Notes: generated from the sequence alone by a model not told the origin. Shown: positions 8,271 through 26,993, numbered from the stretch's first letter. The stretch: DNA of 64,000 nucleotides from an uncultured Eubacterium sp. (GCA_900547255.1 URGC01000001.1:308-64307); one strand, 5' to 3'. Program-made: numbers and translations.

Positions 8271-8478
8271 ATTAATTCACTCCATTTCATAGAATAATCC
8301 AGATGATTGTCTGAATAACACAGATGTTAGTATATCAGATTTTGGGTGTAAGTCCTATATTAATTTATAAAAGAATGCTATTTTTCTGTAAAAATGTATA
8401 GAAGATATTTTATTTTAGTGGAGACTAACCTGGTCGTATGTTAACATATTAACAACGAATTTTAAAGGAGATGTGATT

Positions 8479-10875: not shown

Positions 10876-11126
10876 AAAATTTATAACTGGATGATTAATA
10901 TAATACGCCTTATAGCATAACTCTGCTATAAGGCGTATTTGATATTGCAGTATAAGCTGTCCATAGTTTTAAACTATGGATAACCTATATTTTTATCTAT
11001 TGTACAGAAAATATAGCTCAATTTATAATGAAGAACAGCTCTGCGGCAGCTTAATTGACGTAATATTCTAAAGGTAGTACAATATAATATATTTATGAAA
11101 ATTCGTACTAACAGGAGGATTATCAC

Positions 11127-11963
11127 ATGCGTTTAGGTATCAGAGCACATGACGTGGCATATGCGCCACTTGAACAGTTAATTCCTAATATTCACAATCA
11201 GGGATTTAAATGTATGCATATAGCATTAAGCAAATCAATCAAGGAGTTCAAGCCAGATATATGTACAATGACTCCGGGACTTGCTATGTATATGAAGGAA
11301 CTTTGTCAGGAGAATAAGGTAGATGTTGCTGTACTTGGCTGTTATCTTAACCTTTGCAATCCTAATCCAGAGAAGCATGCGCAGATAGTTGAGAAGTACA
11401 AGGCTCATATCAGATTTGCAAGCATACTTGGATGCGGCGTTGTGGGAACAGAGACAGGTGCTGTCAATGAAGAGTACAAGTATGAGCCAGCTAACCATAC
11501 AGAAGAGGCTTTAGAGGAATTCATTAAGAATTTAAGACCAATCGTTAAATATGCTGAGCAGTTCGGTGTTATAGTGGCAATCGAGCCAGTATGGAAGCAT
11601 ATCGTGTATACAGTTGAGAGAGCAAGAAAGGTTCTTGATGCAATTGACTCACCTAACCTTCAGATAATATTTGACCCGGTTAACCTTTTATGTGTAGATA
11701 ATCTTTCACAGCAGGATGAGATTATAGAGAAGGCATTTGAACTTTTAAGAGACGAGATTGCTATTGTACACTGCAAGGATTATGTTGTTGAGGGTGATGA
11801 GCTTAAATCAATAGCAGCAGGTACAGGCGGACTTAATTATCCACTTCTTTTAAAGAAGATTAAGGAGTATAAGCCATATGTACATGTTACTCTTGAGAAT
11901 ACTGTTCCAGAGAATGCAATAGCAACAAGAGAATTTATGGAAAGAACATACGCACAGGTGTAA
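11127..11963 (+). CDS. Xylose-isomerase-like TIM-barrel (AP endonuclease 2 superfamily) protein; candidate CbiR-type cobamide-remodeling phosphodiesterase
   Basis: Sugar-phosphate isomerase/epimerase fold motifs. First gene of the cobamide salvage operon. RBS AGGAGG. Confidence 0.55.
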   Translation: MRLGIRAHDVAYAPLEQLIPNIHNQGFKCMHIALSKSIKEFKPDICTMTPGLAMYMKELCQENKVDVAVLGCYLNLCNPNPEKHAQIVEKYKAHIRFASILGCGVVGTETGAVNEEYKYEPANHTEEALEEFIKNLRPIVKYAEQFGVIVAIEPVWKHIVYTVERARKVLDAIDSPNLQIIFDPVNLLCVDNLSQQDEIIEKAFELLRDEIAIVHCKDYVVEGDELKSIAAGTGGLNYPLLLKKIKEYKPYVHVTLENTVPENAIATREFMERTYAQV

Positions 11964-11967
11964 GGAT

Positions 11968-12243
11968 ATGTGGGTTTTAATATTATTATATCTGTTTGTA
12001 GCCAATGTTGTAACATTTGTGATATTCGGCATTGATAAGCACAAGGCAATTAAGCATGAGTGGAGAATACCGGAAGGTTCACTTATGGGATTTGCAGCGT
12101 TAGGTGGAGCACTTGGGGCACTGCTTGGAATGAAGTTTTACAGACATAAGACCAGGCATGCAAAGTTTACAGTTGGTGTTCCGCTGATACTTGTTACACA
12201 TATATTTTTACTTATAATGCTATACATGTACATTCCGTATTAG
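11968..12243 (+). CDS. DUF1294 family small membrane protein
   Basis: Two TM helices and the conserved FGIDK.KA...WRIPE motif. Starts 4 nt after the previous gene ends. Confidence 0.7.
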   Translation: MWVLILLYLFVANVVTFVIFGIDKHKAIKHEWRIPEGSLMGFAALGGALGALLGMKFYRHKTRHAKFTVGVPLILVTHIFLLIMLYMYIPY

Positions 12244-12260
12244 ACAGAAGGCTGGAGATA

Positions 12261-12536
12261 TTGATGAGTGGGAATAATTATAAGTTTTTCTGTAATCATG
12301 ACTGCGAGTATTACCCATGTCATAAGATGCCGGATGGCGAGGAATTAAACTGCCTGTTCTGCTATTGTCCGCTGTATGCACTTGGCAAAGAGTGTGGCGG
12401 CAATTACCGTATAACAGCCAAGGGGATAAAGGACTGCACCAATTGTACAGTCTGCCATGGCAAAGATGGGTATGAGCACGTCAGGAGTAAGATTGGCGGT
12501 ATTATCAGCAGAGTTTCTGATAATCTGTCTGAATAA
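12261..12536 (+). CDS. Cysteine-rich small domain protein (10 Cys in CxxC-type spacing)
   Basis: CNHDCEYYPCH...CLFCYCP...CTNCTVCHG. Co-operonic with the B12-type ABC importer. Confidence 0.6.
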   Translation: MMSGNNYKFFCNHDCEYYPCHKMPDGEELNCLFCYCPLYALGKECGGNYRITAKGIKDCTNCTVCHGKDGYEHVRSKIGGIISRVSDNLSE

Positions 12537-12561
12537 CGACAATGATAAAAGGGGAAAGATA

Positions 12562-13734
12562 ATGATTAAGAAAAACATTTTCAAGAAAATTGCAGCCTGT
12601 GTAATGATAGCAGTTATGGCTGTGTCTGTAGCAGCATGTGGCAGCACTAATGCCGACAGCAATAACAAGGCAGCCAATGAGGCATCACAGTACTCAGGCA
12701 AGCTTGAGCTTGACCACAGCGTTGAATTCAAGTATGCAAAAAATATATCTATAGATGTATACAAGGGCGGATATAAGATGATTAAGATTACACAGAACAA
12801 TCCGTTCCTTGTAGTTCCAGAGGGAATGGCAGTTCCAACTGATATTGGCAGTGATGTATGTGTATTACAGCAGCCAATTGACAATATTATAGTATCATCA
12901 ACACCAACAATGTCATTACTTAATTCATTAGATTGTCTTGATAAGGTATCTCTTACAACAACAGACAAGAGTGGATGGTATATTGACAGTGTTAAGAACA
13001 AGCTTGAATCAGGTGACATTAAGTATATTGGTTCTTATCAGGAGCCAGATTACGAGATGATTGCTGCTTCAGGTTCTACATTTGGTGTATTCTCAACTAT
13101 GTTAAAGGATGAAGTTGCAGACAAGCTCAAGCAGCTTAATGTCAATTACATTCTTGACCAGTCAAGTGCAGAGGATCATCCATTAGCAAGAGTTGAATGG
13201 ATTAAGGTGTACGGAGCTTTATTTAACAAGGAAGCTGAGGCTGATAAGCACTTTGCAGAGCAGGAGAAGCTTGTAACAGATATACAGAATAATTCTAAGA
13301 CAACAGATAAGACTGTAGCAGTATTCTATATAACATCCAAGGGCGACCTTTATACACGTAACAGTGATGATTACATGACTAAGATGGTAACACTTGCCGG
13401 TGGTAAGTATGTCCTTGATGGCAAGGTTGGTGTAGGCAAGACTGGTACAACTAAGATGGAGGCAGAGGCTTTCTATTCATCAGCTAAGGATGCAGATATT
13501 ATTATCTATATCTGGAGCATGGGCGGCAAGCCAGCTACAATAGCAGACCTTGTTGCAAAGAGTGAAGTACTTGGTGATATGAAGGCTGTTAAGGATGGCA
13601 GCGTATGGTGTACTACAGCAGATTTCTTCCAGACATCAAGCACAATTGGTAATATAATCAGCGATATCAGCAAGGTTGTAACATCAACAGATTCTAATAC
13701 AGATAAGTACACATATCTGTTCAAGTTAAAATAA
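12562..13734 (+). CDS. ABC transporter substrate-binding lipoprotein (BtuF/FecB-type, cobamide or iron-siderophore)
   Basis: ORF 12457..13734. RBS AAAGGGGAAAG before ATG 12562. Lipobox AACGS. Periplasmic-binding-protein type 8 architecture. Confidence 0.75.
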   Translation: MIKKNIFKKIAACVMIAVMAVSVAACGSTNADSNNKAANEASQYSGKLELDHSVEFKYAKNISIDVYKGGYKMIKITQNNPFLVVPEGMAVPTDIGSDVCVLQQPIDNIIVSSTPTMSLLNSLDCLDKVSLTTTDKSGWYIDSVKNKLESGDIKYIGSYQEPDYEMIAASGSTFGVFSTMLKDEVADKLKQLNVNYILDQSSAEDHPLARVEWIKVYGALFNKEAEADKHFAEQEKLVTDIQNNSKTTDKTVAVFYITSKGDLYTRNSDDYMTKMVTLAGGKYVLDGKVGVGKTGTTKMEAEAFYSSAKDADIIIYIWSMGGKPATIADLVAKSEVLGDMKAVKDGSVWCTTADFFQTSSTIGNIISDISKVVTSTDSNTDKYTYLFKLK

Positions 13735-13735
13735 A

Positions 13736-14779
13736 ATGAGTAAGACAGGATTGTTATCAAATAAAAATAACGGACTCAGGTATCTGCTTGTATTAATATT
13801 CCTGATTTTTATGTTTGTGCTGGCTGTTATTGCTAATATCAATACAGGAAGCGTGCATATTAACGTAAAAGAAATTTTTGACATTATCGTGTTAAAGAAG
13901 CAGACGGATATATCGAGTTATAATATAATATGGAAGATAAGACTTCCAAGAATGATGACAGCAGCGGTGCTTGGCGGGGCTTTAGCCCTGTCAGGCTTTC
14001 TTTTGCAGACTTTTTTCCGCAATCCGATAGCTGGTCCATATGTGTTAGGAATCTCGGCGGGAGCTAAAATGCTTCTTGCGGCATTTACAATTGTGTTTGC
14101 ACAGTTCTTTTCTTCTATGCCGGTAGGTCTTACAGTTATTGTAACATTTGCAGGTTCAATGATATCAATGCTGTTCGTGCTGTTGTTTGCGGGATATGTG
14201 CATAATATGTCTGTACTTCTCGTTATAGGAATAATGGTAAGTAATATATGCAGTGCAATTACAGATTTTATGATTAACTTTGCCAATGAGGCGCAGATTG
14301 TCAATCTGACACACTGGTCACTGGGAAGCTTTTCAGGAGCCAGATGGTCTGATGTCAAGGTTGCATCTGTGATTGTATTTACAACATTTATAATGACGAT
14401 ATTTGTAAGCAAGCCAATGTCTGCATATCAGCTTGGAGAGGGATATGCAAGAAGCATGGGCGTTAATATCAAGCTGTTCCGTATAGTGCTTATTATTCTT
14501 TCAAGCATGCTGTCAGCGTGTGTCACAGCTTTTGCCGGACCTATAGCATTTGTGGGAATAGCGGTGCCACATATAACCAAGCTTATGTTAAAGACATCTA
14601 AACCGATTATCATGATACCGACTGTTTTCCTGACAGGTGGAGTGTTCTGTATGCTCTGTGACCTGTGTGCAAGGACAATTCTTTCTCCTACAGAATTATC
14701 ACTTGGAACAGTGACATCAATCGTTGGTGCGCCAGTTGTCATAGCACTTATGCTTAAACAGAGAAAGGGGCAGCAGTGA
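13736..14779 (+). CDS. ABC transporter permease, FecCD/BtuC family
   Basis: Multi-TM protein with a FecCD signature. Overlaps the ATPase start (ATGA). Confidence 0.85.
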   Translation: MSKTGLLSNKNNGLRYLLVLIFLIFMFVLAVIANINTGSVHINVKEIFDIIVLKKQTDISSYNIIWKIRLPRMMTAAVLGGALALSGFLLQTFFRNPIAGPYVLGISAGAKMLLAAFTIVFAQFFSSMPVGLTVIVTFAGSMISMLFVLLFAGYVHNMSVLLVIGIMVSNICSAITDFMINFANEAQIVNLTHWSLGSFSGARWSDVKVASVIVFTTFIMTIFVSKPMSAYQLGEGYARSMGVNIKLFRIVLIILSSMLSACVTAFAGPIAFVGIAVPHITKLMLKTSKPIIMIPTVFLTGGVFCMLCDLCARTILSPTELSLGTVTSIVGAPVVIALMLKQRKGQQ

Positions 14780-15885
14780 TGGGGAAAACGTATATAAGTA
14801 CAGATAATCTGTGTGTCGGTTACAGTGGCAGGACAGTTGTTGACAATGTCAATATAGATGTAAAAAGGGGCGAGATATTAGCCCTTATCGGGCCTAATGG
14901 CGCAGGAAAATCTACTATTCTAAAGACACTTACAAGACAGTTATCCAAAATAAGCGGTGTCGTAATGCTTGATGATACTGAGCTTAATAAAATCAGCGTA
15001 AGAGACCTTGCAACCAGAATGTCAGTTGTGCTGACAGAAAGAATAGAGCCAGAGCTTCTTACATGTAAAGATGTTGTTGCTATGGGACGTTATCCTTATA
15101 CTGATGGCTTTGGAAGGCTGACAGATGAGGACGAAAGAATTGTGCGTGAATCACTTGAGAGTGTCAACGGACTTGAACTTGCTGATAAAAGTTTTGATGC
15201 CATAAGTGATGGACAACGCCAGAGAATCATGCTTGCGAGGGCATTGTGCCAGCAGCCGGATATAATGATACTTGATGAGCCGACATCGTATCTTGATATA
15301 CGATATAAAGTTGAACTTCTTAATATATTAAGAGACATGGCAAACCGTGGTATTACAATAATTCTTTCTCTGCATGAGATTGACCTTGCGTATAAGCTTG
15401 CTGACAGAATTCTATGTGTCAATGGCAAAGAGATGCTTATGCTTGGAACGCCGGAAGAGATCTTTAGTGGCAATACAATAGAGAAGCTGTTTGGACTTGA
15501 AGAAGGTGTATATGAGAACAGGTTTGGAAGCGTTGAATTGAAAAAATCGGACAATACTCCGGACGTCCTTGTTATAGGCGGCAGCGGCAGTGGAATAGAA
15601 GTTTACCGCAGATTACAGAAGAAGGGCAGGGCATTTTATGCAGGGCTGCTTTATGAAAATGACTGTGATATTCCGGTAGCAAAGGCACTTGCCACAGATG
15701 TTGTGGCTGAGAAGGCATTTATGCCAGTATCAGATGAGAACAAGAATAGAATGTATAAGCTGCTTGAGAGTGTGGATTATGTAATTGACTGTGGATGCGG
15801 GCATGGCGAATATGATAAGATTAACAGTGAAATTATCCGGCTTGCAGAGAGTAAAGGCAAATTAACAGACATAAGCAGCTTATGA
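14776..15885 (+). CDS. ABC transporter ATP-binding protein (BtuD/FecE-like) with ~110-aa C-terminal extension
   Basis: Walker A GPNGAGKST, signature SDGQRQR and Walker B ILDEP. Extra C-terminal domain contains GGSGSG and CGCGHG. Confidence 0.85.
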   Translation: MMGKTYISTDNLCVGYSGRTVVDNVNIDVKRGEILALIGPNGAGKSTILKTLTRQLSKISGVVMLDDTELNKISVRDLATRMSVVLTERIEPELLTCKDVVAMGRYPYTDGFGRLTDEDERIVRESLESVNGLELADKSFDAISDGQRQRIMLARALCQQPDIMILDEPTSYLDIRYKVELLNILRDMANRGITIILSLHEIDLAYKLADRILCVNGKEMLMLGTPEEIFSGNTIEKLFGLEEGVYENRFGSVELKKSDNTPDVLVIGGSGSGIEVYRRLQKKGRAFYAGLLYENDCDIPVAKALATDVVAEKAFMPVSDENKNRMYKLLESVDYVIDCGCGHGEYDKINSEIIRLAESKGKLTDISSL

Positions 15886-15934
15886 TAGTAATGGCGAATT
15901 ATAGAAATCTGAATAATATATAGGAGCAGATGAC

Positions 15935-17374
15935 ATGATAAAGAATAAACTTCCAAGAATCCTTATATCGGCGGCTTCGAGTGGAAGCGGCAAGACAACA
16001 TTTACATGTGCGCTGCTCTATTACCTTAAAAGACATGGATTTAATATTAATGCATTCAAATGCGGACCAGATTACATTGACCCGATGTTTCACCGGGTTA
16101 TATCAGGTGTGGAATGTATTAATATTGATCCATTTTTTTTAAATGCAGACAGTGATGCGGCATGCAGTCTGATTTCACGATATTCTGCCGGCAGTGATAT
16201 AGCGGTTATAGAAGGCGTTATGGGATTGTATGATGGTAAAAATGCACAGTGTGACTACAGCACATACTCAGTTGCCAGAATGACTAAAAGCCCGGTTGTT
16301 GTGGTTGTCAATGCCAAGGGCACTTCGCTTACAGCTCTTGCAATGGCAGAGGGAATAGCGGGATTTGGTGATGAAAGCATTGTCAAAGGCATTATATTTA
16401 ACAACATGGGCGATGTTGTATACAATCAGGTTTTGGATGAGTATAATGAAAAATATACTAATAATGGCAGAAAGTGTGATTTTGAAATAATCGGACATAT
16501 ACGAACCATGCCCAAAGAGCTTATGATGGAAAGCAGACATCTTGGACTTATAACACCAGACAATACAGATGGTATTAAAGACAGGATTGCCAGAATGTAT
16601 GAGCATATGAAGGATTCAATAGACTGGGCGAAGCTGGTGCGTATCGCAGAGTCAGCACAAGAATATGAGGACACAGTAAGCCTGCCTGGGAATAAAACAC
16701 ACAATGCAGAAAATAATGCAGCGGCTGGAAGTGACAAGCCGGTTATCGCTGTTGCCAAGGATGATGCATTTAATTTTTATTATAAGGAGAATCTGCGTGC
16801 GCTTGAGAGGGCAGGAGCGGTTATTGAATATTTCAGCCCGCTTGCAGATGAAGCAGTTCCAAAGAGAGCCAGTGGATTATATATTGGCGGTGGATATCCT
16901 GAAAGTTACACTGAAAAATTAAGCCGGAATGAGAATACTAAGGAATCAATCAGAAATGCTGTGGCTTTACATATGCCAGTGGTTGCTGAGTGTGGCGGAT
17001 TTATGTATCTTACAGATTCTATTGATGGAGCTGGTATGTGTGGTATTATTAAAGCAGACAGCACATACATAGGGCATCTTGTAAGATTCGGATATACAAC
17101 ACTCACGGCAAAGAGTGATAATGTTATTATGAAGGCAGGACAGAGCGTGAGGGCACATGAGTTCCATTATTATGACACTACTGATAATGGGGCAGATTAT
17201 GTGGCTGTCAATCTTAAAGGCATATCTTATGACTGTGTGACAGCTAATGAGTGGATGTATGCAGGGTTCCCACACATATACTTTCCATCATGTGAAGGTC
17301 TGGCAGAAAGATTTATAGATAAGTGCAGGAATTATTGCTGCGAAAAGATATGCAAACAGGAGCTATTCCTGTAG
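15935..17374 (+). CDS. cbiA: Cobyrinate a,c-diamide synthase
   Basis: N-terminal AASSGSGKTT P-loop plus C-terminal glutamine amidotransferase domain. Confidence 0.85.
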   Translation: MIKNKLPRILISAASSGSGKTTFTCALLYYLKRHGFNINAFKCGPDYIDPMFHRVISGVECINIDPFFLNADSDAACSLISRYSAGSDIAVIEGVMGLYDGKNAQCDYSTYSVARMTKSPVVVVVNAKGTSLTALAMAEGIAGFGDESIVKGIIFNNMGDVVYNQVLDEYNEKYTNNGRKCDFEIIGHIRTMPKELMMESRHLGLITPDNTDGIKDRIARMYEHMKDSIDWAKLVRIAESAQEYEDTVSLPGNKTHNAENNAAAGSDKPVIAVAKDDAFNFYYKENLRALERAGAVIEYFSPLADEAVPKRASGLYIGGGYPESYTEKLSRNENTKESIRNAVALHMPVVAECGGFMYLTDSIDGAGMCGIIKADSTYIGHLVRFGYTTLTAKSDNVIMKAGQSVRAHEFHYYDTTDNGADYVAVNLKGISYDCVTANEWMYAGFPHIYFPSCEGLAERFIDKCRNYCCEKICKQELFL

Positions 17375-17414
17375 AAATATAAATGAATGTAGGAAATGTA
17401 ATGTAGGAAATGTA

Positions 17415-18482
17415 ATGGATAAGATAACTTCTATAGAACAGGTAATTGCTGGGATTAAGCCGGCTTCGGATAAGCTGAAGGCTGATACGAGAAAAAGAAT
17501 AGATAATATTGCAAAGCCTCTTAATTCCCTTGGAATGTTAGAGGATGTTCTTGTGAGATTAGGTGGGGCTGGCATACTTAAAAAAGCATATAATCCGTGT
17601 GTTGTCGTCATGTGTGCAGATAATGGAGTTGTCGCGGAGGGCGTGTCGCAGACAGGCAGTGATGTGACAGCCAAGGTTGCGGCTAACATGACAAGAAATA
17701 TGTCAAGCGTATGCCTTATGGCTTCATCAATAAGCGTGCCGGTATATCCATATGATATAGGCATGATTACAGACGTTGATGGAGTGACATCAATTAAGAC
17801 AATGTATGGGACAAAAGATTTCTATAATGAACCTGCCATGTCAAGAAATGCGGCAGAGCAGGCTGTTATATCAGGAATCAATACTGCAATTGATATGTAT
17901 AACCAGGGGTTTGACATGATTGCAACAGGGGAGATGGGAATAGGCAATACAACTACTTCATCGGCTGTTGCATCAGTTCTTACAGGTCAGGGTGTGACTG
18001 TTATGACTGGACGAGGAGCTGGATTATCAGATGATGCACTTGCAAGAAAGATAGAAGTCATAAGACATGGAATCGATACATTAAAACCTGATAAATCAGA
18101 TGTGACAGATGTTATATCCAAGGTCGGAGGGCTTGATATAGCGGGTATGGCTGGACTTTTCTTAGGCGGTGCATACTGTGGCATGCCAGTTATTATTGAT
18201 GGCTTTATATCCGGTGTTGCAGCACTTGCTGCGGCAAAATTATCGCCAGCATGCGTGGATTACATGATTGCTTCGCATATGTCAAAAGAACCAGGCTCTG
18301 TAAAAGTATTTGATGAGCTGCGACTCAGCCCCCTTATGTCAATGGGAATGGCTCTTGGAGAGGGAACAGGTGCAGTTACTGTAATACCTCTTATCAATAT
18401 GGCAGTATCAGTGTATTATGGAATGCCTACATTTGATAAGCTTGATATGGAGGCATATAAGGATTATGATAGAGAAGATTAA
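17415..18482 (+). CDS. cobT: Nicotinate-nucleotide--dimethylbenzimidazole phosphoribosyltransferase
   Basis: CobT family motifs (GEMGIGNTT). Confidence 0.85.
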   Translation: MDKITSIEQVIAGIKPASDKLKADTRKRIDNIAKPLNSLGMLEDVLVRLGGAGILKKAYNPCVVVMCADNGVVAEGVSQTGSDVTAKVAANMTRNMSSVCLMASSISVPVYPYDIGMITDVDGVTSIKTMYGTKDFYNEPAMSRNAAEQAVISGINTAIDMYNQGFDMIATGEMGIGNTTTSSAVASVLTGQGVTVMTGRGAGLSDDALARKIEVIRHGIDTLKPDKSDVTDVISKVGGLDIAGMAGLFLGGAYCGMPVIIDGFISGVAALAAAKLSPACVDYMIASHMSKEPGSVKVFDELRLSPLMSMGMALGEGTGAVTVIPLINMAVSVYYGMPTFDKLDMEAYKDYDRED

Positions 18483-19017
18483 CCGCTTAGTGCTTGTTAT
18501 AGGTGGCAGTGGAAGCGGTAAGAGTGAGTTCGCAGAGCATATGGCACTAAAGCTGCATGACTGTAACAGGGGGCATCTGTACTATGTGGCAACCATGGTA
18601 AGCCATGATAAAGAATCTGACGAAAGAATATACCGTCATTTAAGAAGAAGAGATAACACAGCGTTTGAGACAATTGAAAGACCAACAGGAATCGACAGTA
18701 TCGCTGTGCAGGATAAAGATGTCATACTGCTTGAGTGCATGTCTAATCTTCTTGCAAATGAGATGTTTAAAGGCGATATAATAGATAATGAGTGTGTCAC
18801 AAGAATTTTAGATGATGTATACAAGCTTCATAATCAGTGCGATATGGTAATTGTATCCAATGAGGTAAGTCTTGATGGCTGCGAATATGATGATATAACA
18901 AAACAATATATCGCAGATATATCATATATTAACAGAAAGATTGCAGATGTGGCGGACACAGTTGTTGAGGTAGTGGCAGGTATTCCTGTATATATTAAGG
19001 GCAGTGGAGAGAATTAA
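18466..19017 (+). CDS. cobU: Adenosylcobinamide kinase / adenosylcobinamide-phosphate guanylyltransferase
   Basis: ORF 18418..19017. ATG 18466 gives MIEKINRLVLVIGGSGSGKSEFAE (CobU P-loop). Overlaps the cobT end. Confidence 0.85.
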   Translation: MIEKINRLVLVIGGSGSGKSEFAEHMALKLHDCNRGHLYYVATMVSHDKESDERIYRHLRRRDNTAFETIERPTGIDSIAVQDKDVILLECMSNLLANEMFKGDIIDNECVTRILDDVYKLHNQCDMVIVSNEVSLDGCEYDDITKQYIADISYINRKIADVADTVVEVVAGIPVYIKGSGEN

Positions 19018-19790
19018 TGGGTGTAATAAAGGCTTTAATAGCGGCATTTTCAACATTTTCAAGAATCCCGGTTCCAAGTGTAAGACTTGATGAAAAGGAT
19101 TTCCGTTATACATTGTGTGCTTTTCCAGCGATAGGACTTGTGATAGCTCTGCTTGAAATGATTATCTTTAAGATATGTGGCATGGCAGGACTTGGAGATA
19201 TATTAAGAGTGTGCATAATTTGTGCGGTTCCGGTGATTGTTACCGGAGGTATTCATCTTGATGGTTACTGCGATACATGTGATGCCAAATCTTCATACCA
19301 GCCGGCAGATAAGAAGCTTGAGATATTAAAAGACCCTCATATCGGTGCATTTGGAGTGATACGTCTGATAGTACTGATACTGTTCTATGTGGCAGCAGTT
19401 TCAGAGATTAAGAATGTATGGCTGTTTGGTCTGACATTTGTTGTGTCAAGGGCATTTACGGCTATATCGGTTGTAAGCCTTAAATCAGCTAAGAAGACGG
19501 GAATGGGCGCATCGGAGAAGGATAATTCCAATAAAAAAGGAGTTACCATATCGTCTGTGGTATGGATTCTGGTCTGCCTGCTGGCAGGATATATTATATC
19601 TGGTGGTGCAGGTCTTATTACCAGTGCATGTATGATTGTGGCATGTGCGGTAACATATATACTTTATGTGCGCAGCGTATACAAGCAGTTCGGAGGCTTT
19701 ACAGGAGATACCTCTGGCTGGTTTTTATGTGTTATGGAAAATGTAATGGCGTATGTGTGTGTAGTATGCCAATTGTTTATTAATATATGA
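19017..19790 (+). CDS. cobS: Adenosylcobinamide-GDP ribazoletransferase (cobalamin synthase)
   Basis: CobS membrane protein. N-terminus MGVIKALIAAFSTFSRIPVP. Confidence 0.85.
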   Translation: MGVIKALIAAFSTFSRIPVPSVRLDEKDFRYTLCAFPAIGLVIALLEMIIFKICGMAGLGDILRVCIICAVPVIVTGGIHLDGYCDTCDAKSSYQPADKKLEILKDPHIGAFGVIRLIVLILFYVAAVSEIKNVWLFGLTFVVSRAFTAISVVSLKSAKKTGMGASEKDNSNKKGVTISSVVWILVCLLAGYIISGGAGLITSACMIVACAVTYILYVRSVYKQFGGFTGDTSGWFLCVMENVMAYVCVVCQLFINI

Positions 19791-19867
19791 TGTGATGGTA
19801 AAAAGCTGCTGGTGACAGTGCTGTAAAGCTTTGACTGCCAGCATCAAAAATGTTGTGAGGTCATGTT

Positions 19868-20209
19868 ATGATACTTGTGATAGGTGGTTACAGGCAGGGG
19901 AAATTAGATTATGCCAAAGATAATCTTGGTGTGACAGATGTCAATGACGGATGCTTTGGCGAGGCAGACTGCATATATAATCTTGCTTCGATGGTGGATG
20001 ATGAAGCATTTGAGGCAGATCTTAGAAGCTATGTAGACAGCCATCCTAACTGCGTGATTATATGTGATGAGGTTGGCGGTGGAATTGTTCCATTGAAAGA
20101 ACCGGACAGGGCACACCGCGAGAAGGTTGGAAGAACATGCTGTATGCTTGCAAAAGAGGCAGAGGCTGTATACAGAGTGTTCTGTGGAATAGGAGTTAAG
20201 ATAAAGTGA
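19868..20209 (+). CDS. Truncated CobU-like paralog with degenerate P-loop (GGYRQGKL) and conserved CobU C-terminal segment
   Basis: MILVIGGYRQGK... The C-terminus VIICDEVGGGIVPL...GIGVKIK resembles the CobU C-terminus. Only 113 aa. Confidence 0.45.
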   Translation: MILVIGGYRQGKLDYAKDNLGVTDVNDGCFGEADCIYNLASMVDDEAFEADLRSYVDSHPNCVIICDEVGGGIVPLKEPDRAHREKVGRTCCMLAKEAEAVYRVFCGIGVKIK

Positions 20210-20763
20210 TTGTCAGTCTTATACGTCATGGAAAGACACAGGGAAATATAGAAAAACGCTATATAGGAAAGACGGATGAACCGCTTGCCGGCATTGGGAT
20301 AGAGGAACTTAAAAATCATTCATATCCAGATTGTGATATTGTATATACATCACCGATGTTAAGGTGTACACAGACGGCGGAGATTATATATCCAGATAAG
20401 AAGAAAGTTATAATTGATGAATTTAGGGAATGTGATTTCGGAGTGTTTGAGGGACATAATTATAGTGAATTATCTGGCAATCCATTATATCAGCAGTGGA
20501 TTGATTCGTATGGAACGATGGATTTCCCGGAAGGCGAGAGAATAGAGGATTTCAAGGAAAGAATATTCAATGCATTTAACGGACTTATAGCACGCACAGA
20601 AAAGAAAAATATCGCAATTGTTGCACATGGTGGTACTATAATGACTTTGCTCGAGCATTTTGAAGAAAAACACGACTATTATGCGTGGCAGGCAGGTAAT
20701 GGCTGTGGATTTGTGTGCGAGTACAATGGTGGAATAATTAAGGTGACAGGGAAGATAGAGTGA
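20206..20763 (+). CDS. cobC: Alpha-ribazole phosphatase (histidine phosphatase family)
   Basis: RHG catalytic motif (LIRHGKTQGN) and phosphoglycerate-mutase-like fold, in a cobamide operon context. Confidence 0.7.
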   Translation: MIVSLIRHGKTQGNIEKRYIGKTDEPLAGIGIEELKNHSYPDCDIVYTSPMLRCTQTAEIIYPDKKKVIIDEFRECDFGVFEGHNYSELSGNPLYQQWIDSYGTMDFPEGERIEDFKERIFNAFNGLIARTEKKNIAIVAHGGTIMTLLEHFEEKHDYYAWQAGNGCGFVCEYNGGIIKVTGKIE

Positions 20764-20764
20764 T

Positions 20765-21748
20765 ATGGCACATTTTATTGGCTTATCGGTAATTGGAATG
20801 GTGGCAGGATATATTCTTGATATATTATTCGGCGACCCATATATTTCGTGGCATCCTGTAAGACTTATAGGAATGCTTATATCAAAGTATGAAAAAATCC
20901 TCTATAAAGGCAGTGATTCCAAGAAACTGAGGCGTATGGGAAGGCTACTTGTGTGTCTTGTGACAGCGACAGTTTTTATATGCGTTGAATTGATAAGAGG
21001 CATTTCATATGTAATACATCCAGTTCTTTTTGTTGTGGCAGAAGCGGTTCTTATATGGTTCGGGCTTGCACAGACTTCTTTGAAGAAAGAGAGCATGAAG
21101 GTATATGACGCATTTGCAGAAAATGACACTGAGAAGGCAAGGCATGCGGTATCAATGATTGTAGGGCGTGATACAGCAAAGCTTGATGAAGCAGGAATTA
21201 TGAGGGCGGCAGTCGAGACTGTGGCAGAGAATACATCTGACGGTGTGACAGCACCTTTGTTTTATGCGGCATTTTTCGGGGCGGCAGGAGAGTATGTATA
21301 CAAGGCGGTCAACACAATGGACTCGATGGTTGGCTACAAGAATGACAGATATATTGATTTTGGAAGATGTGCGGCAAAGCTTGATGATGTGTTTAATTAT
21401 ATACCTTCAAGAATATCGGCATTGCTTATGATTGCAGCTTCGTGTATTCTTGGAATGGATTATAATAATGCTTACAGGATATTTAAAAGGGACAGATTTA
21501 AACACGCAAGCCCTAATTCAGCCCAGACTGAGAGCGTGTGTGCAGGTGCGCTTGGACTTAAGCTGGCAGGGGATGCATGGTATGGCGGTGTCCTTTTTAA
21601 GAAAGATTATATCGGTGATGAGGTAAAAAAGATTGACTGCGAAGATATAAAACGCGCCTGTAAGCTTATGAACGTTACAGGAGCAGAATCATTCATATTG
21701 GCAGTGATTGCAAGATGCGTTATTATTGTATTGTTTATGTCAGCATGA
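20765..21748 (+). CDS. cbiB: Adenosylcobinamide-phosphate synthase
   Basis: CbiB/CobD membrane protein family. Confidence 0.85.
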   Translation: MAHFIGLSVIGMVAGYILDILFGDPYISWHPVRLIGMLISKYEKILYKGSDSKKLRRMGRLLVCLVTATVFICVELIRGISYVIHPVLFVVAEAVLIWFGLAQTSLKKESMKVYDAFAENDTEKARHAVSMIVGRDTAKLDEAGIMRAAVETVAENTSDGVTAPLFYAAFFGAAGEYVYKAVNTMDSMVGYKNDRYIDFGRCAAKLDDVFNYIPSRISALLMIAASCILGMDYNNAYRIFKRDRFKHASPNSAQTESVCAGALGLKLAGDAWYGGVLFKKDYIGDEVKKIDCEDIKRACKLMNVTGAESFILAVIARCVIIVLFMSA

Positions 21749-21773
21749 TAATTATTTTAAGGGGAGAAAATAT

Positions 21774-22889
21774 ATGCTATTAAGAGAAAGAAATGTACAT
21801 GGTGGAAACTATAATGATAAAGGATATGTAGATATGTCCGTTAATATCAATCCATTTGGCACACCGGAAAAAGTTATGAACGCTATGCAGGAGGCATTAG
21901 GCGAGGTGGGGGCATACCCGGATACGCATTGTAATGAACTTGTGGCTAAACTTAGCAGGAAAGTTGCATTGCCACGCGAATGTATTATATGTGGCAATGG
22001 GGCTGCTGAGCTTATATATAATTATGCTGCAGCACTTGGTCCTGGTGCCGAGGCACTTATATATGCACCAGCATTTGCAGAATATGAGAGAGCATTGTTG
22101 GCTTATGGAGTGAATGTTAATTATCATATACTTGATGAAAGGCATGGATTTAAAATGCAGATGCGGGATATAGACGAGGCTGAGATTGCACATGCAGATG
22201 CGGTCTTTATCTGTATGCCGTCTAATCCGGCAGGACAGATTATAGAAAGAAGTGTGCTTGAAAGCCTGCTGTGCGCATGTGAGAGGAATCACACAAGATG
22301 TCTGCTTGATATGTGCTTTTATGAATTGACCACAGATTACAATGAATGTTTTCCTATATATCTTGTTAACCAGTACAGTACTATGTGCTTATTGTCAACA
22401 TTTACCAAGACATATGCGATACCGGGAGTGAGAATTGGATATATACTGAGCCATGATACACAGATGATGCGGCTGATGAGCCAGAGGCAGCAGTGCTGGA
22501 ATGTGTCAGTCATAGCACAGAGGGCTGGAATAGCATGTCTTGAATGCAGCAAAGATTATGCAAACGCTTCAAGAGCATATATTGATAAAGAAAGAGAATA
22601 TATATATAACAATCTTTTAGAGCTTGTTGATAAAGTGTACAAGTCAGATGCCAACTATATACTGTTCTATGATAAATATATAACAAGTCAGATGCTTAAT
22701 GAATATGGCATACAGATTAGAAACTGCTTTGATTATATGGGATTAGAAATGGGATATTACAGAGTATGTGTCGGAAAACATGATGACAATGTGAAATTCA
22801 TCGAGGCACTTAAAGATATCAAAGAAAAGAGGCAGGAACATGGGGAAGAGAAAAGCGAGACCAATTATGATTCAGGGAACCATGTCTAA
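21774..22889 (+). CDS. cobD: L-threonine-O-3-phosphate decarboxylase (class I/II aminotransferase fold)
   Basis: ORF 21708 has a TTG start. ATG 21774 follows AAGGGGAGAAAA. PLP aminotransferase family in cobamide context. Confidence 0.75.
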   Translation: MLLRERNVHGGNYNDKGYVDMSVNINPFGTPEKVMNAMQEALGEVGAYPDTHCNELVAKLSRKVALPRECIICGNGAAELIYNYAAALGPGAEALIYAPAFAEYERALLAYGVNVNYHILDERHGFKMQMRDIDEAEIAHADAVFICMPSNPAGQIIERSVLESLLCACERNHTRCLLDMCFYELTTDYNECFPIYLVNQYSTMCLLSTFTKTYAIPGVRIGYILSHDTQMMRLMSQRQQCWNVSVIAQRAGIACLECSKDYANASRAYIDKEREYIYNNLLELVDKVYKSDANYILFYDKYITSQMLNEYGIQIRNCFDYMGLEMGYYRVCVGKHDDNVKFIEALKDIKEKRQEHGEEKSETNYDSGNHV

Positions 22890-24306
22890 TGCCGGGAAGA
22901 GTATTCTGTGTACTGCGCTTTGCAGGATATTTGCACAGGATGGCTACAGGGTTGCTCCGTTCAAGTCACAGAACATGGCTCTCAATTCATTTATAACAAA
23001 GGATGGATATGAGATGGGGCGTGCCCAGGCGGTTCAGGCGGAGGCAGCAGGAAAAGCTCCTGACGTATATATGAATCCGGTGCTTTTAAAGCCAACTACT
23101 GATGTGGGCTCGCAGGTTATTGTCAATGGAAAGTCAATTGGCAACATGAAGGCTGTTGACTACTATGCGTATAAGAAAAAGCTTATACCTGACATATTAG
23201 AGGCTTATGACAGGCTTGCCGAAGATAACGATATAATAGTTATTGAGGGAGCAGGAAGTCCGGCTGAGATTAACTTAAAGCAGGATGATATAGTCAATAT
23301 GGGGCTCGCAAAGCTTGTGGATGCGCCGGTGCTTCTTGTCGGTGATATAGACAGGGGCGGTGTGTTTGCACAGCTATATGGAACGGTAAAGCTGCTTGAA
23401 AAGAGCGAGGCTGACCATATAAAGGGGTATATAATCAACAAATTCCGTGGTGACGTGAGGCTTTTGCAGAGCGGGCTTGATGAGATGACAAGTCTTATAG
23501 ATATTCCATGTGCCGGGGTTGTGCCTTATGCCTATGTCGATATAGATGACGAGGACAGCCAGAGTGAAAAGCTTGAGAATACAGGCGGTGCAGACTATAA
23601 GCCGCTTATTGATATAGCGGTTATTAAGCTTCCACGGATGAGCAATTACACAGACTTTAACACGCTGGCAAGATATGATGGCGTTAATGTGAGATATGTA
23701 AGTGATGCATCTAAGCTAAGAAATCCAGATGCGGTTATTATTCCGGGGACAAAGAGTACTGTCAGTGATATGAAGTGGCTCCGTGAGAATGGCATGGAAT
23801 GTGCAGTGAAAAAGCTTATAGATAAAGGCGTTCCGGTTATCGGAATATGTGGAGGATTACAGATTCTTGGAAAGAATATTGTGGATAAATGTGGTGCTGA
23901 GAGTGACGGAAGTATCACAGGCATGGAAGTACTTGATATAGACACAGTATTTAATTCAGAAAAAAAGCAGTGCCAGACCGACACTGTAATAGAAGGACTT
24001 GACGGAATCTATGCCGGATTTAACGGAACCAAGGTGCATGGCTACGAGATGCACATGGGCATAAGCAGTAAAGATAAATACTTTATCCAGAAAGAAAATG
24101 TCCTTGCAACGTATATACATGGTTGCTTTGATGATGGACTTGATGATAAACTAATAGATATGCTTTTCAGACTGAAGAGATTGGACAGAGATAACGTCAA
24201 TAAAAAATCTTTTTCTGAGTACAGACAGGAGCAGTACGATATACTTGCTAATGTTGTAAGAGACAGTCTGGATATGAATATGATTTATAAAGTGCTTGGA
24301 CTATGA
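22840..24306 (+). CDS. cobQ: Cobyric acid synthase
   Basis: MIQGTMSNAGKS P-loop and GATase domain. The start may be ATG 22867 instead. Confidence 0.85.
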   Translation: MGKRKARPIMIQGTMSNAGKSILCTALCRIFAQDGYRVAPFKSQNMALNSFITKDGYEMGRAQAVQAEAAGKAPDVYMNPVLLKPTTDVGSQVIVNGKSIGNMKAVDYYAYKKKLIPDILEAYDRLAEDNDIIVIEGAGSPAEINLKQDDIVNMGLAKLVDAPVLLVGDIDRGGVFAQLYGTVKLLEKSEADHIKGYIINKFRGDVRLLQSGLDEMTSLIDIPCAGVVPYAYVDIDDEDSQSEKLENTGGADYKPLIDIAVIKLPRMSNYTDFNTLARYDGVNVRYVSDASKLRNPDAVIIPGTKSTVSDMKWLRENGMECAVKKLIDKGVPVIGICGGLQILGKNIVDKCGAESDGSITGMEVLDIDTVFNSEKKQCQTDTVIEGLDGIYAGFNGTKVHGYEMHMGISSKDKYFIQKENVLATYIHGCFDDGLDDKLIDMLFRLKRLDRDNVNKKSFSEYRQEQYDILANVVRDSLDMNMIYKVLGL

Positions 24307-24340
24307 ATATGACAGCACGGATTATGACCTGGAGGAAGTT

Positions 24341-25867
24341 ATGAAGAAGAACATTTTAAGCAGAATGCTGGTACTGCTTATGGTAACAGCAGCTTTGTGT
24401 ACAGCCTTTACAGGATGTGGCGCAAAGGACACGAATGAGGAAGACAGAACAACATTTACAGTTGGATTTGATGCGGAATTCCCACCATATGGCTACAAGG
24501 ACACTGATGGCAACTATGTCGGATTTGACTTGGACCTTGCAGAGGAAGTGGCTAAGAGGAATGGCTGGACACTTGTCAAGCAGCCTATTGACTGGGATTC
24601 TAAAGATATGGAGCTTAATTCTGGCTCGATAGACTGTATATGGAATGGATTCACCCTTAATGGAAGAGAGAAGGACTATACATGGTCAACAGCCTATATT
24701 GATAACTCTCAGGTCGTTATCGTTAAGAATGATTCAGATATTAAGAAGCTCTCAGACCTTGCTGGCAAAAATGTTGTTGTGCAGTCTGATTCATCAGCAC
24801 TTGCCGCATTTACAGGCGAGGATGCGACAGAGGATAATATCAGGCTGTGTGCTTCATTTAAGAGTCTTACACAGGTTGGCGATTATAACAGTGCTTTCAT
24901 GAATCTCGAAGCTGGTTCGGTTGATGCTATATGTATGGATATAGGTGTGGCAAGCTACCAGATTAAGCAGAGAGGCGGCAAGTTTACAATTTTGCCTGAA
25001 AATGTGTCAAGCGAGCAGTATGGTATCGGCTTCAAGCTTGGCAACACAGCACTCCGTGACAAGGTTCAGGTTTCACTTAATGAGATGTTAAGTGATGGAA
25101 CATTTGCTTCAATTGCGGATAAATGGGAATTATCAGACAGCGTATGCCTTGGCAAGGCAGGAACAGACAGTGCATATCTTCAGGATGCACAGGGTAAGGA
25201 AGGCAGCTCATTTGGAGCTAAATTTGTATACATAGTAGGACAGCTTGCCAAGGGCATGCTTTCAACAGTATCAATATTCCTCCTCACACTTATCTTTTCA
25301 CTTCCATTAGGACTTCTTGTGTGCTTCGTAAGAATGTCAAAGCTGGCTGTGCCAAGATGGATTGCCAAGATATACATATCAATCATGAGAGGTACACCTC
25401 TTATGTTACAGCTTCTTGTTGTGTTCTTCGGCCCATACTTCTTATTTGGCGTGAAGGTTTCATCACAGTATAGATTTACTGCTGTAATAATTGGTTTTGC
25501 ACTTAATTATGCAGCGTACTTTGCAGAGATATACCGTTCAGGAATTGAGAGTATTCCTGCCGGACAGTATGAGGCTGCGGATGTTTTAGGATACACTAAG
25601 ACACAGACATTTGTAAGAATAATATTCCCTCAGATGGTTAAGCACGTGCTTCCACCTGTAACTAACGAGGTTATAACACTTGTAAAGGATACATCTCTTG
25701 CGTTTGCGCTTGCTTATACTGAGATGTTCACCCTTGCAAAACAGCTTGTTGCGGCAGAGGCGAGCATGATGCCATTGTTTATAGCGGGTCTGTTCTATTA
25801 TATCTTTAATTTCGTTGTTGCTTTGATTATGGAACGTATTGAAAAGAAGATGCAGTATTACAGATAG
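24341..25867 (+). CDS. Amino-acid ABC transporter, fused substrate-binding lipoprotein + permease (PAAT family)
   Basis: ORF 24296..25867. The start MKKNILS has a lipobox TGCG. An SBP_bac_3 domain is followed by a His/Glu/Gln/Arg permease domain. Confidence 0.8.
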   Translation: MKKNILSRMLVLLMVTAALCTAFTGCGAKDTNEEDRTTFTVGFDAEFPPYGYKDTDGNYVGFDLDLAEEVAKRNGWTLVKQPIDWDSKDMELNSGSIDCIWNGFTLNGREKDYTWSTAYIDNSQVVIVKNDSDIKKLSDLAGKNVVVQSDSSALAAFTGEDATEDNIRLCASFKSLTQVGDYNSAFMNLEAGSVDAICMDIGVASYQIKQRGGKFTILPENVSSEQYGIGFKLGNTALRDKVQVSLNEMLSDGTFASIADKWELSDSVCLGKAGTDSAYLQDAQGKEGSSFGAKFVYIVGQLAKGMLSTVSIFLLTLIFSLPLGLLVCFVRMSKLAVPRWIAKIYISIMRGTPLMLQLLVVFFGPYFLFGVKVSSQYRFTAVIIGFALNYAAYFAEIYRSGIESIPAGQYEAADVLGYTKTQTFVRIIFPQMVKHVLPPVTNEVITLVKDTSLAFALAYTEMFTLAKQLVAAEASMMPLFIAGLFYYIFNFVVALIMERIEKKMQYYR

Positions 25868-25881
25868 GAGGCATATGAGAG

Positions 25882-26640
25882 ATGAAATTACTTGAAATAA
25901 ATAATCTTGGAAAGAGCTTTGGAGAAAATGAGGTCTTAAAGGATATAACAATGAGTGTTGATAAGGGCGAGGTTGTAGCTATCATAGGTCCATCTGGCTC
26001 TGGTAAATCAACACTTCTTAGATGTGCCACACTCCTTGAGACTATGGACAAGGGAAGCCTTAAGATCGGTGGAAGGCTTGTTGCAACTGATACTAATGGC
26101 AAGTCAGAATATGTATCGAAGAATGAGTTAAGACAGATAAAGAGCCTTTTCGGGCTTGTATTCCAGCAGTTTAACTTATTCCCACATTACACAGTTCTTA
26201 AAAATGTTATGGATGCGCCGGTTGTTGTTGAAAAGAGGAACAAAGCGGATGTTGAGAAGGAAGCAAGGGAGCTTCTTTTAAAGGTAGGTCTCGAGGGCAA
26301 GGAGAACAGTTACCCATGCCATCTTTCAGGTGGACAGCAGCAGAGAGTTGCCATAGCAAGGGCACTTGCCATGAATCCTGAGATACTTTTCTTCGATGAG
26401 CCTACATCAGCACTTGACCCTGAGATAACAGCGGGTATTCTTAAAGTTTTAAAGCAGCTCGCTGCTGAGAAGATGACAATGGTTATAGTTACACATGAGA
26501 TTGACTTTGCAAGAAAGGTTGCTGACAGGGTTATCTTCATGGATGGAGGGGTTATTGTGGAGCAGGGTGCGCCGAAGGATGTGCTGGATAATCCGTCCAA
26601 TGAAAGAACAAAGGCATTCCTGCAAAAACTTGATTTGTAA
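25882..26640 (+). CDS. Amino-acid ABC transporter ATP-binding protein (GlnQ-like)
   Basis: Walker A GPSGSGKST, signature LSGGQQQRVAIARAL and Walker B FFDEPTSALD. Confidence 0.9.
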   Translation: MKLLEINNLGKSFGENEVLKDITMSVDKGEVVAIIGPSGSGKSTLLRCATLLETMDKGSLKIGGRLVATDTNGKSEYVSKNELRQIKSLFGLVFQQFNLFPHYTVLKNVMDAPVVVEKRNKADVEKEARELLLKVGLEGKENSYPCHLSGGQQQRVAIARALAMNPEILFFDEPTSALDPEITAGILKVLKQLAAEKMTMVIVTHEIDFARKVADRVIFMDGGVIVEQGAPKDVLDNPSNERTKAFLQKLDL

Positions 26641-26700
26641 TAAAGGGAAAAATCTCCTGCATGCTGGCACCGGCTATAGGCTGTGGCGGTCTGACCGTCC

Positions 26701-26920
26701 CACAGTCTGACAGCGGTATGCGCATATATAATTAATTCAGGTCCTTTGTGTCTAGCTACTCTAAGGCTGGCACGACAAAGCTTATTAAATCCGCCTCGCT
26801 AAAAACGCACTTCGTTTGGACGTTTAGCAGGCGGATTAGCTTTTGTCTAGCACCAGCCTAAGAGTAGCACGACAGTCGTCAGGAATTAATTATATATACG
26901 CATACCGCTGTCAGGCTGTG
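26701..26920. repeat. Copy 1 of a ~220-bp structured palindromic intergenic element
   Basis: Outer 38-bp inverted repeat (26701-26738 / 26883-26920) encloses a ~145-bp imperfect palindrome. It shares identical GGCACGACAAAGCTT and GCTAAAAACGCACTTCGTTTGGACGTTTAGCAG runs with 57079-57297. Confidence 0.7.
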
Positions 26921-26993
26921 GAAGTTTTACTTGTATTTTTGGTGGGAAGTCTTTATAATCTAGGTATGTATACTTTGACGCGGAGGATGGCGT

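Follow-up and report, generated by a model that had tools for sequence, protein, structure and literature searches.

A probably reduced corrinoid salvage gene cluster without a cobalamin riboswitch on an accessory segment of a human-gut Lachnospira

Introduction

What does a cobamide gene cluster do, and how might it be controlled, when it has no corrin-ring genes beside it and no cobalamin riboswitch in front of it? The question is raised by a run of + strand genes at positions 11127-24306 of a 64,000-nucleotide (nt) stretch of DNA from an uncultured Eubacterium sp. (GCA_900547255.1, URGC01000001.1:308-64307), which at its full length is referred to here as the window. The original prediction described the run as a cobamide salvage and remodeling operon headed by a CbiR-like TIM-barrel gene. 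Our comparative analysis indicates that it is probably a reduced corrinoid salvage or late-pathway module that has lost its riboswitch, lies on an accessory segment in one Lachnospira subclade and is likely transcribed from the promoter of the TIM-barrel gene.

In the pathway concerned, corrinoids are imported by BtuFCD, amidated by CbiA and CobQ and joined to aminopropanol phosphate by CobD and CbiB; the intermediate is activated by CobU, and CobT, CobS and CobC add the lower ligand. Bacteria that have the nucleotide-loop genes and a corrinoid importer and no corrin-ring genes have been described as “Cbi salvagers”; they account for 15% of bacterial genomes, and their loci have been interpreted as pathways being lost (Shelton et al. 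2018, PMC6461909).

Results and Discussion

Genes were called from the open reading frame (ORF) list and from Pfam and NCBIfam scans of the window, and each predicted gene of the run was recovered, all on the + strand and in the predicted order. The run opens with an AP_endonuc_2, xylose-isomerase-like TIM barrel (11127-11963, Pfam PF01261, 112.5 bits; hereafter the TIM gene), followed by a small membrane protein of the DUF1294 family (11968-12243, Pfam) and a cysteine-rich “zf-like” protein (PF04071, 12261-12536, 95 bits). A corrinoid ATP-binding cassette (ABC) importer comes next, composed of a BtuF-like lipoprotein as its substrate-binding part (12562-13734, Pfam Peripla_BP_2), a BtuC-like permease (FecCD, 13736-14779, Pfam 264 bits) and a BtuD-like ATPase with a C-terminal extension (14776-15885, Pfam; PF27219 was matched on an orthologue). 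The BtuF-like protein begins, as read from the sequence, with the lipoprotein-like MIKKNIFKKIAAC at 12562 and not at 12457. The enzymes that follow are CbiA, cobyrinic acid a,c-diamide synthase (15935-17374; NCBIfam NF002204, 409 bits against a cutoff of 254), CobT, the lower-ligand phosphoribosyltransferase (17415-18482; Pfam DBI_PRT, 371 bits), CobU, the cobinamide kinase/guanylyltransferase (18418-19017, Pfam), CobS, cobalamin-5'-phosphate synthase (19017-19790, Pfam 158.7 bits), a CobU-like protein of 113 amino acids (aa) that we term mini-CobU (19868-20209, Pfam), CobC, alpha-ribazole phosphatase (20206-20763, Pfam His_Phos_1), CbiB, adenosylcobinamide-phosphate synthase (20765-21748, Pfam 348.6 bits), a CobD-like threonine-phosphate decarboxylase of the class I/II aminotransferase fold (21708-22889) and CobQ/CbiP, cobyric acid synthase (22840-24306; NCBIfam NF001989, 604 bits). 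CobU probably starts at about 18433-18484, and the identical gene on the same-species contigs L001/L002 was called as 194 aa. CobC (TIGR03162, 124 bits, cutoff 162.9) and CobD (TIGR01140, 218.7 bits, cutoff 290.55) score under their equivalog cutoffs, yet each family is the best NCBIfam match for its gene. Intergenic spacers within the run range from -65 to +77 nt.

The ratio of nonsynonymous to synonymous substitution rates (dN/dS) was calculated between the window and the related locus L102 and is 0.03-0.18 for the cluster genes, with CobD the most relaxed at 0.50; purifying selection was also seen in comparison with L098. Because of this selection the cluster appears to consist of working genes and not of relics. 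All nucleotide-loop assembly genes (cobU/cobP, cobS, cobT, cobC) were found by Pfam and NCBIfam. The absence of ring methyltransferases from the run, as originally proposed, extends to every corrin-ring gene (cbiC, D, E, T, F, G, H, J, K, L) and to a corrinoid adenosyltransferase, none of which was found in the cluster or among the other ORFs of at least 150 aa in the window, and a ring operon nearby was likewise not seen. The cluster matches the “Cbi salvager” or partial-pathway category as far as the 64-kb window reaches, and shares with the published examples the nucleotide-loop genes and the corrinoid importer in the absence, within that window, of ring genes; in contrast to them, it also keeps CbiA, CobQ, CbiB and CobD, and with these the whole late pathway from cobyrinate onward (PMC6461909). 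Import and late-pathway functions are thus well founded in the gene content, and it is the term “remodeling” that we would drop, since CbiZ is not present and the TIM protein is not shown to be CbiR, as discussed below.

Subsequently, we compared the run with related clusters located through homologues of the BtuF-like and other proteins, which gave seven cluster types including that of the window. BtuF-like homologues outside the species are at most 71% identical, and a BtuF search of metagenome contigs yielded one locus only (L098). One counterpart with ring genes, L099, is a full de novo operon whose BtuF, BtuC and zf-like proteins are 57%, 75% and 66% identical to those of the window. It carries, in order, zf-like, a TP_methylase, CbiG, a TP_methylase/methyltransferase fusion and a Cobalamin riboswitch (92.6 bits), and after the riboswitch BtuF-C-D, CbiA, CbiC, CbiD, a CbiJ/methylase fusion, CobT, CobU and CobS. 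The gene order of the window is this backbone minus every ring gene. The two share zf-like, btuF-btuC-btuD-cbiA and cobT-cobU-cobS at a protein identity of 48-75%, whereas the window is without CbiC, CbiD, CbiG, the CbiJ fusion, the TP_methylase-type methyltransferases and the riboswitch, and its cluster sits between the TIM gene and relA. We propose that the ancestral order was zf-like, ring genes, cobalamin riboswitch, btuFCD, cbiA, ring genes and cobT-cobU-cobS, and that all ring-building genes would then have been deleted; the cluster has the appearance of a clostridial de novo cbi operon that was cut down in this way.

The remaining cluster types help to place the loss of the riboswitch. 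L095/L096 consist of a riboswitch (73 bits), BtuFCD, CbiA, CobT, CobU, CobS, mini-CobU, CobC, CbiB, CobQ and CobA. L097, whose TIM protein is 94% identical to that of the window, has the TIM gene, zf-like, a riboswitch (86.7 bits) and BtuFCD, and then unrelated genes. L093/L094 (TIM 92% identical) have the TIM gene, zf-like, BtuF, BtuC, a BtuD::CobT fusion, CobU, CobS, mini-CobU, CobC, CbiB, CobD and CobQ, with neither cbiA nor a riboswitch. L100 and L101 are de novo operons (BtuFCD-CbiA-CbiC-CbiD and further genes) in which no Rfam riboswitch was detected at gathering scores. In the alignment from the TIM gene to btuF, the spacer between zf-like and btuF measures about 420 nt in L097, where it holds the riboswitch, as against about 75 nt in L093 and 25 nt in the window; the window, L098 and L093, all with spacers of about 25-75 nt, have no riboswitch. 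Since a riboswitch is present at the homologous position in L097 and before btuF in L095/L096 and L099, the element appears to have been lost secondarily, by deletion, in the window lineage, leaving the 25-nt spacer. An Rfam riboswitch precedes btuF in three of the seven cluster types (L095/L096, L097 and L099) and none is found in the other four (the window group, L093/L094, L100 and L101), so its absence is common among the relatives. The earlier suggestion that regulation may differ from the usual therefore holds as far as the missing riboswitch is concerned, and the case is less unusual than was implied.

Two features of these relatives may be added. At L100:217-287, 5' of cbiK, a partial match of 39 bits to the riboswitch model of the relatives may represent a divergent or truncated cobalamin riboswitch. 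The fusion of a BtuD-like ABC ATPase with CobT (ABC_tran and DBI_PRT domains, 627 aa) is encoded at L093:8713-10596 and L094:4811-6694, in the place where the window has cbiA.

The predicted absence of a cobalamin riboswitch upstream of 11127 or of 12261 was borne out by two kinds of model. Rfam returned no match in the window at gathering scores, and at E<=10 no Cobalamin, AdoCbl or AdoCbl-variant match (models considered: RF00174, RF01482 and RF01689) was obtained either in the window or in 10500-13000 searched as a short query with laxer filters. The second model, a covariance model derived from the riboswitch sequences of four related clusters and run with filters off over 8000-30000, gave a top score of 9.6 bits, versus 175-230 bits for genuine elements. 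In addition, there is too little room for an aptamer in the gaps of 4, 17 and 25 nt that follow the TIM, DUF1294 and zf-like genes or in the predicted leader of about 37 nt.

That leader follows from a sigma-70-like site, TTGACG-N17-TACAAT, located by promoter scan at 11055-11083 (+); its predicted -10 box ends 43 nt before the ATG of the TIM gene, and the leader of about 37 nt contains only an AGGAGG ribosome-binding site. In subclade members, and also in the cluster-less loci L014, L020, L023 and L027, the TIM ATG is preceded at a distance of 34-71 nt by a TTGACn-N17-TAnAAT box with a GTAGTA core. Because conservation of the box does not depend on the presence of the cobamide cluster, the site at 11055-11083 is best regarded as the putative promoter of the TIM gene itself. 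Two hairpins had been noted in the 250 nt upstream of the run, and both are present: one at 10902-10939 (+), in sequence and fold a 16-bp stem followed by a U-rich tract, and one at 10958-10982 (+), found by terminator scan and fold, with 11 pairs and a T-rich tail. They are likely terminators of the preceding GH127-like gene (8473-10875), and as they lie upstream of the promoter-like site they do not qualify as a regulatory leader of the operon.

The region 10876-11130 folds better than its shuffles (z = -4.35), and the sequence 5' of the TIM gene is poorly conserved outside the promoter boxes. A novel leader RNA at 10876-11126 was considered and rejected, the hairpins preceding the promoter-like site and the conservation being confined to the promoter boxes.

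We then asked where the cluster lies in related genomes. The DNA comes from an uncultured human-gut Lachnospira. Identical proteins occur on contigs of metagenome-assembled genomes, and a scan of species-representative genomes gave Lachnospira rogosae, L. intestinalis and Eubacterium sp. CAG:252 as the nearest named relatives. In sister species with a TIM protein 84-90% identical, the order is GH127-like gene, TIM gene, relA, metallo-beta-lactamase (MBL) hydrolase and radical-SAM gene, with no cobamide gene, and the relA match begins about 10-250 nt past the end of the TIM gene. Homology with the cluster-less relatives (blastn) breaks off with the stop codon of the TIM gene (11963) and sets in again at 26969, 25 nt short of the relA/spoT homologue (26994-29297, +, Pfam), and on this ground the intervening 15 kb or so, 11964-26968, is an accessory segment that carries the cobamide genes and an amino-acid ABC transporter. 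An alignment scan of the TIM family with one genome per GTDB species gave 80 orthologous loci in Lachnospiraceae at 55-90% identity, and tblastn with all window proteins detected cobamide genes within 10 kb of the TIM orthologue in none of them. All loci with a TIM protein at least 92% identical (L001/L002, L102/L103, L098, L093/L094 and L097) have zf-like and btuFCD after the TIM gene, which holds for 0 of the 80 species representatives, at 90% or less. The most parsimonious account is that the cassette was gained in the ancestor of one Lachnospira subclade, at a site that varies between species; L013, L023 and L097 each carry other cargo at the TIM-relA junction. The GC content is about 0.39-0.44 both inside and outside the segment, and composition gives no sign of a foreign origin.

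Taken together, the module would most likely be read through from the conserved sigma-70-type promoter of the TIM gene with its short leader, since the gaps that follow the TIM gene are so small and the terminator scan revealed no convincing internal + strand terminator in the run. Under such read-through, expression might be constitutive, with no cis-acting feedback by B12. Incomplete corrinoids (cobyrinate, cobyrate, cobinamide) or cobamides would be imported and then completed, with an adenosyltransferase supplied from elsewhere. Several points weigh against this reading. Internal promoter-like sites, for example at 12191-12218, could drive the cluster separately. The cobamide proteins are more diverged among the members of the subclade (51-83% identity) than core proteins are (76-94%), which makes a single ancestral gain less certain, and repeated replacement or recombination could have shaped the locus instead. 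The view is of 64 kb of a genome, the rest of which could hold ring genes, an adenosyltransferase or a trans-acting B12 regulator. Finally, plain cobinamide salvage has no need of CbiA, whose retention in intact form and under purifying selection (dN/dS 0.18) hints that earlier intermediates are used or that ring genes are located elsewhere.

Three small genes of the cluster deserve separate consideration. DUF1294 lies on an insertion of about 283 nt, shared by the window and L102 and lacking in L098, L093 and L097, directly after the TIM stop codon; in L098, a near-identical relative without the gene, the gap from the TIM gene to zf-like is 17 nt. It is found in no other related cobamide cluster examined, its dN/dS between the window and L102 is 0.09, and its presence or absence among near-identical relatives marks it as a lineage-specific insertion, so that we would not count it as a gene of the pathway. 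In L099 the zf-like gene stands directly 5' of the gene for a TP_methylase, a ring methyltransferase, and related de novo operons have it at the head of their cbi genes. It persists in the window with no ring gene beside it, and because it is kept under strong purifying selection (dN/dS 0.03-0.05) its role appears to be independent of ring synthesis.

The third, mini-CobU, had been listed as a CobU-like fragment, a description that its intact 113-aa frame and conserved position do not support. It also occurs between cobS and cobC in L093/L094, L095/L096 and L102/L103 at 62-94% identity, and its family comprises 71 sequence clusters, almost all with lengths of 109-129 aa, which are found in Clostridia and annotated by the sources, where annotated, as CobU. 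The motifs MILVIGGxxQGK, CDEVGxGxVP and RxxRExxGR are conserved. Its P-loop, GGYRQGKL, is degenerate relative to the canonical GxxxxGK[ST], and in the alignment to full-length CobU the protein is without the segment between the P-loop and the EVG motif, the Pfam match covering profile positions 106-168 only; this segment we take to hold the guanylylated histidine, as in Salmonella CobU. The AlphaFold2 model is confident, with a predicted local distance difference test score (pLDDT) of 95.5, and it has the CobU fold: the top 24 PDB matches by Foldseek are all CobU structures (TMq 0.68-0.77, TMt about 0.5). With a dN/dS of 0.15 between the window and L102, mini-CobU appears to be an intact, conserved paralogue of the CobU core under purifying selection. 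To judge from its P-loop and missing segment, it cannot be the full bifunctional CobU that the databases annotate.

A further claim concerns the TIM protein. If it were a CbiR-type cobamide phosphodiesterase, the locus would be a remodeling operon; we regard this as very improbable. Akkermansia CbiR belongs to the same AP_endonuc_2 superfamily, and the CbiR clade is defined by adjacency to cobamide genes, which is seen for 80% of CbiR homologues (Mok et al. 2020, PMC7733943). The window resembles the cbiR locus of Akkermansia muciniphila, also a gut bacterium, in that an AP_endonuc_2 TIM gene adjoins cobamide salvage and transport genes, and throughout the subclade cobamide-associated genes follow 4-90 nt after the TIM gene (DUF1294 and then zf-like in the window, zf-like in L098, L097 and L093/L094). 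The residues E153, D183, H215 and E257, of the metal-ligand type of the superfamily, are invariant in the TIM family. The fold itself, an AP endonuclease 2 or xylose-isomerase-like TIM barrel, is common to the whole superfamily and does not discriminate. Unlike in the CbiR clade, however, the adjacency is limited to the subclade of the window: none of the 80 orthologous loci has cobamide genes within 10 kb, and in sister Lachnospira the gene is kept with relA directly after it. Nor did we find any link to the CbiR clade. Among the 282 published homologues of CbiR (Table S1 of PMC7733943), Lachnospiraceae and Eubacterium are absent, and Firmicutes are represented by two weak rows only, neither of them adjacent to cobamide genes. 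No NCBIfam equivalog was found for the protein, its NCBIfam matches being sub-threshold ones to sugar-phosphate epimerases; sequence and profile searches gave MJ1311, Art22, UlaE, IolI and ketose epimerases as its best PDB relatives, and no CbiR-named entry was among the matches in either database. Longer proteins of the TIM family have no cobamide-related domains. The AlphaFold2 model, from a shallow alignment, is poor (pLDDT 59.6). With a dN/dS of 0.01-0.05 the TIM gene is a conserved Lachnospiraceae core gene, and what it encodes is not demonstrably CbiR and looks like a housekeeping neighbour of the cluster, not a B12-remodelling enzyme.

Split cob/cbi loci are known in bacteria, and the cluster could accordingly be the late half of a complete de novo pathway with its ring genes elsewhere in the genome, which would make the organism a producer and not a salvager. 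An intact CbiA, above its equivalog cutoff and under purifying selection, fits this idea. We nevertheless think it unlikely, since no ring gene occurs in the window and the nearest de novo relatives keep their ring genes in the same operon, one group between zf-like and btuF and another between cbiA and cobT, just where the window has none; moreover, cbiA alone is present in 46% of precursor salvagers (PMC6461909). Control by B12 through something other than the known riboswitch, be it a novel cis-acting RNA in a spacer, a trans-acting protein such as zf-like or a riboswitch-controlled regulator elsewhere, also seems to us quite unlikely. It draws on the strong purifying selection on zf-like and mini-CobU and on the better-than-shuffled fold of 10876-11130, but the structure in that region resolves into two terminator-like hairpins 5' of the promoter-like site, the sequence around them is poorly conserved save for the promoter boxes, no spacer in the run exceeds 77 nt, and the TIM promoter is common to species without the cluster. 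Similarly improbable is a more specific version, in which the module, spliced into what is a TIM-relA unit in sister species and deprived of its riboswitch, came under non-riboswitch control, either constitutive or by growth state as shared with the relA neighbourhood, or at the protein level via zf-like or mini-CobU, the latter perhaps as a non-catalytic partner or regulator of CobU.

A reduced salvage module transcribed from the TIM promoter thus remains our preferred explanation, and as such the finding is real but ordinary, a system of a known kind. E. coli and Salmonella express their btuCED and cobUST salvage genes with no cobalamin riboswitch in front, and riboswitch control acts on btuB and the cbi operon. 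The window shares with them riboswitch-free corrinoid import and nucleotide-loop genes and differs in taxon and organisation, so that riboswitch-free salvage genes have precedent both there and in several of the relatives compared here. The main value of the analysis is one of correction: adjacency in a single genome, here of the TIM barrel and of DUF1294, is no ground for a CbiR-like or pathway label without comparative context. Furthermore, the loci form a natural series from a full de novo operon through riboswitch-controlled and riboswitch-less salvage to an importer only, an illustration of how gut Firmicutes lose B12 biosynthesis and its RNA control step by step. Mini-CobU and the retained zf-like gene are small, testable items in an otherwise well-mapped pathway.

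Neighbouring features

The gene run as predicted is real, but its proposed end at 24306 is not, as the tight packing continues to 26640. A fusion of SBP_bac_3 and permease, of a polar amino-acid-type ABC importer (24296-25867, +, Pfam), overlaps the cobQ ORF by 11 nt and is followed by the ABC ATPase of the same importer (25882-26640, +, Pfam). Both genes are under strong constraint relative to L102 (dN/dS 0.04 and 0.03, respectively); the importer is kept in L102 and was not seen in the other related clusters. That it might supply an amino acid, for example glutamine for six amidations, is pure speculation.

Across many Lachnospiraceae (L003-L027, L036-L048, L059 and L070) the TIM gene is linked to relA, MBL hydrolase and radical-SAM genes, and in two of these loci, L014 and L020, about 10 nt separate the end of the TIM gene from the start of the relA match, which points to a conserved TIM-relA transcription unit.

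A long palindromic element, recognised by its inverted repeats (26700-26921, no strand assigned), lies between relA and the gene for the amino-acid ABC ATPase, at the 3' border of the accessory segment. Remnants of its left outer arm extend from about 26650, and the outer right arm is deleted; a full version of about 330 nt with two nested pairs of arms, 96-98% complementary, is found in L102 (L102:16780-17112). As RNA, 26641-26960 folds at -147.9 kcal/mol (z = -12). The element is single-copy in the window, where an exact 30-mer of the palindrome matched only its own two arms, and the 30-mer matched nothing in the relatives' loci compared. The element could be similar to a miniature inverted-repeat transposable element, an integration scar, or a strong terminator or insulator before relA.

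Far upstream of the cluster, just 5' of infC-rpmI-rplT, Rfam gave a sub-threshold match to the L20 leader at 2495-2629 (51.8 bits, gathering score 58.7, E = 2.4e-07), which is probably a genuine L20 leader.

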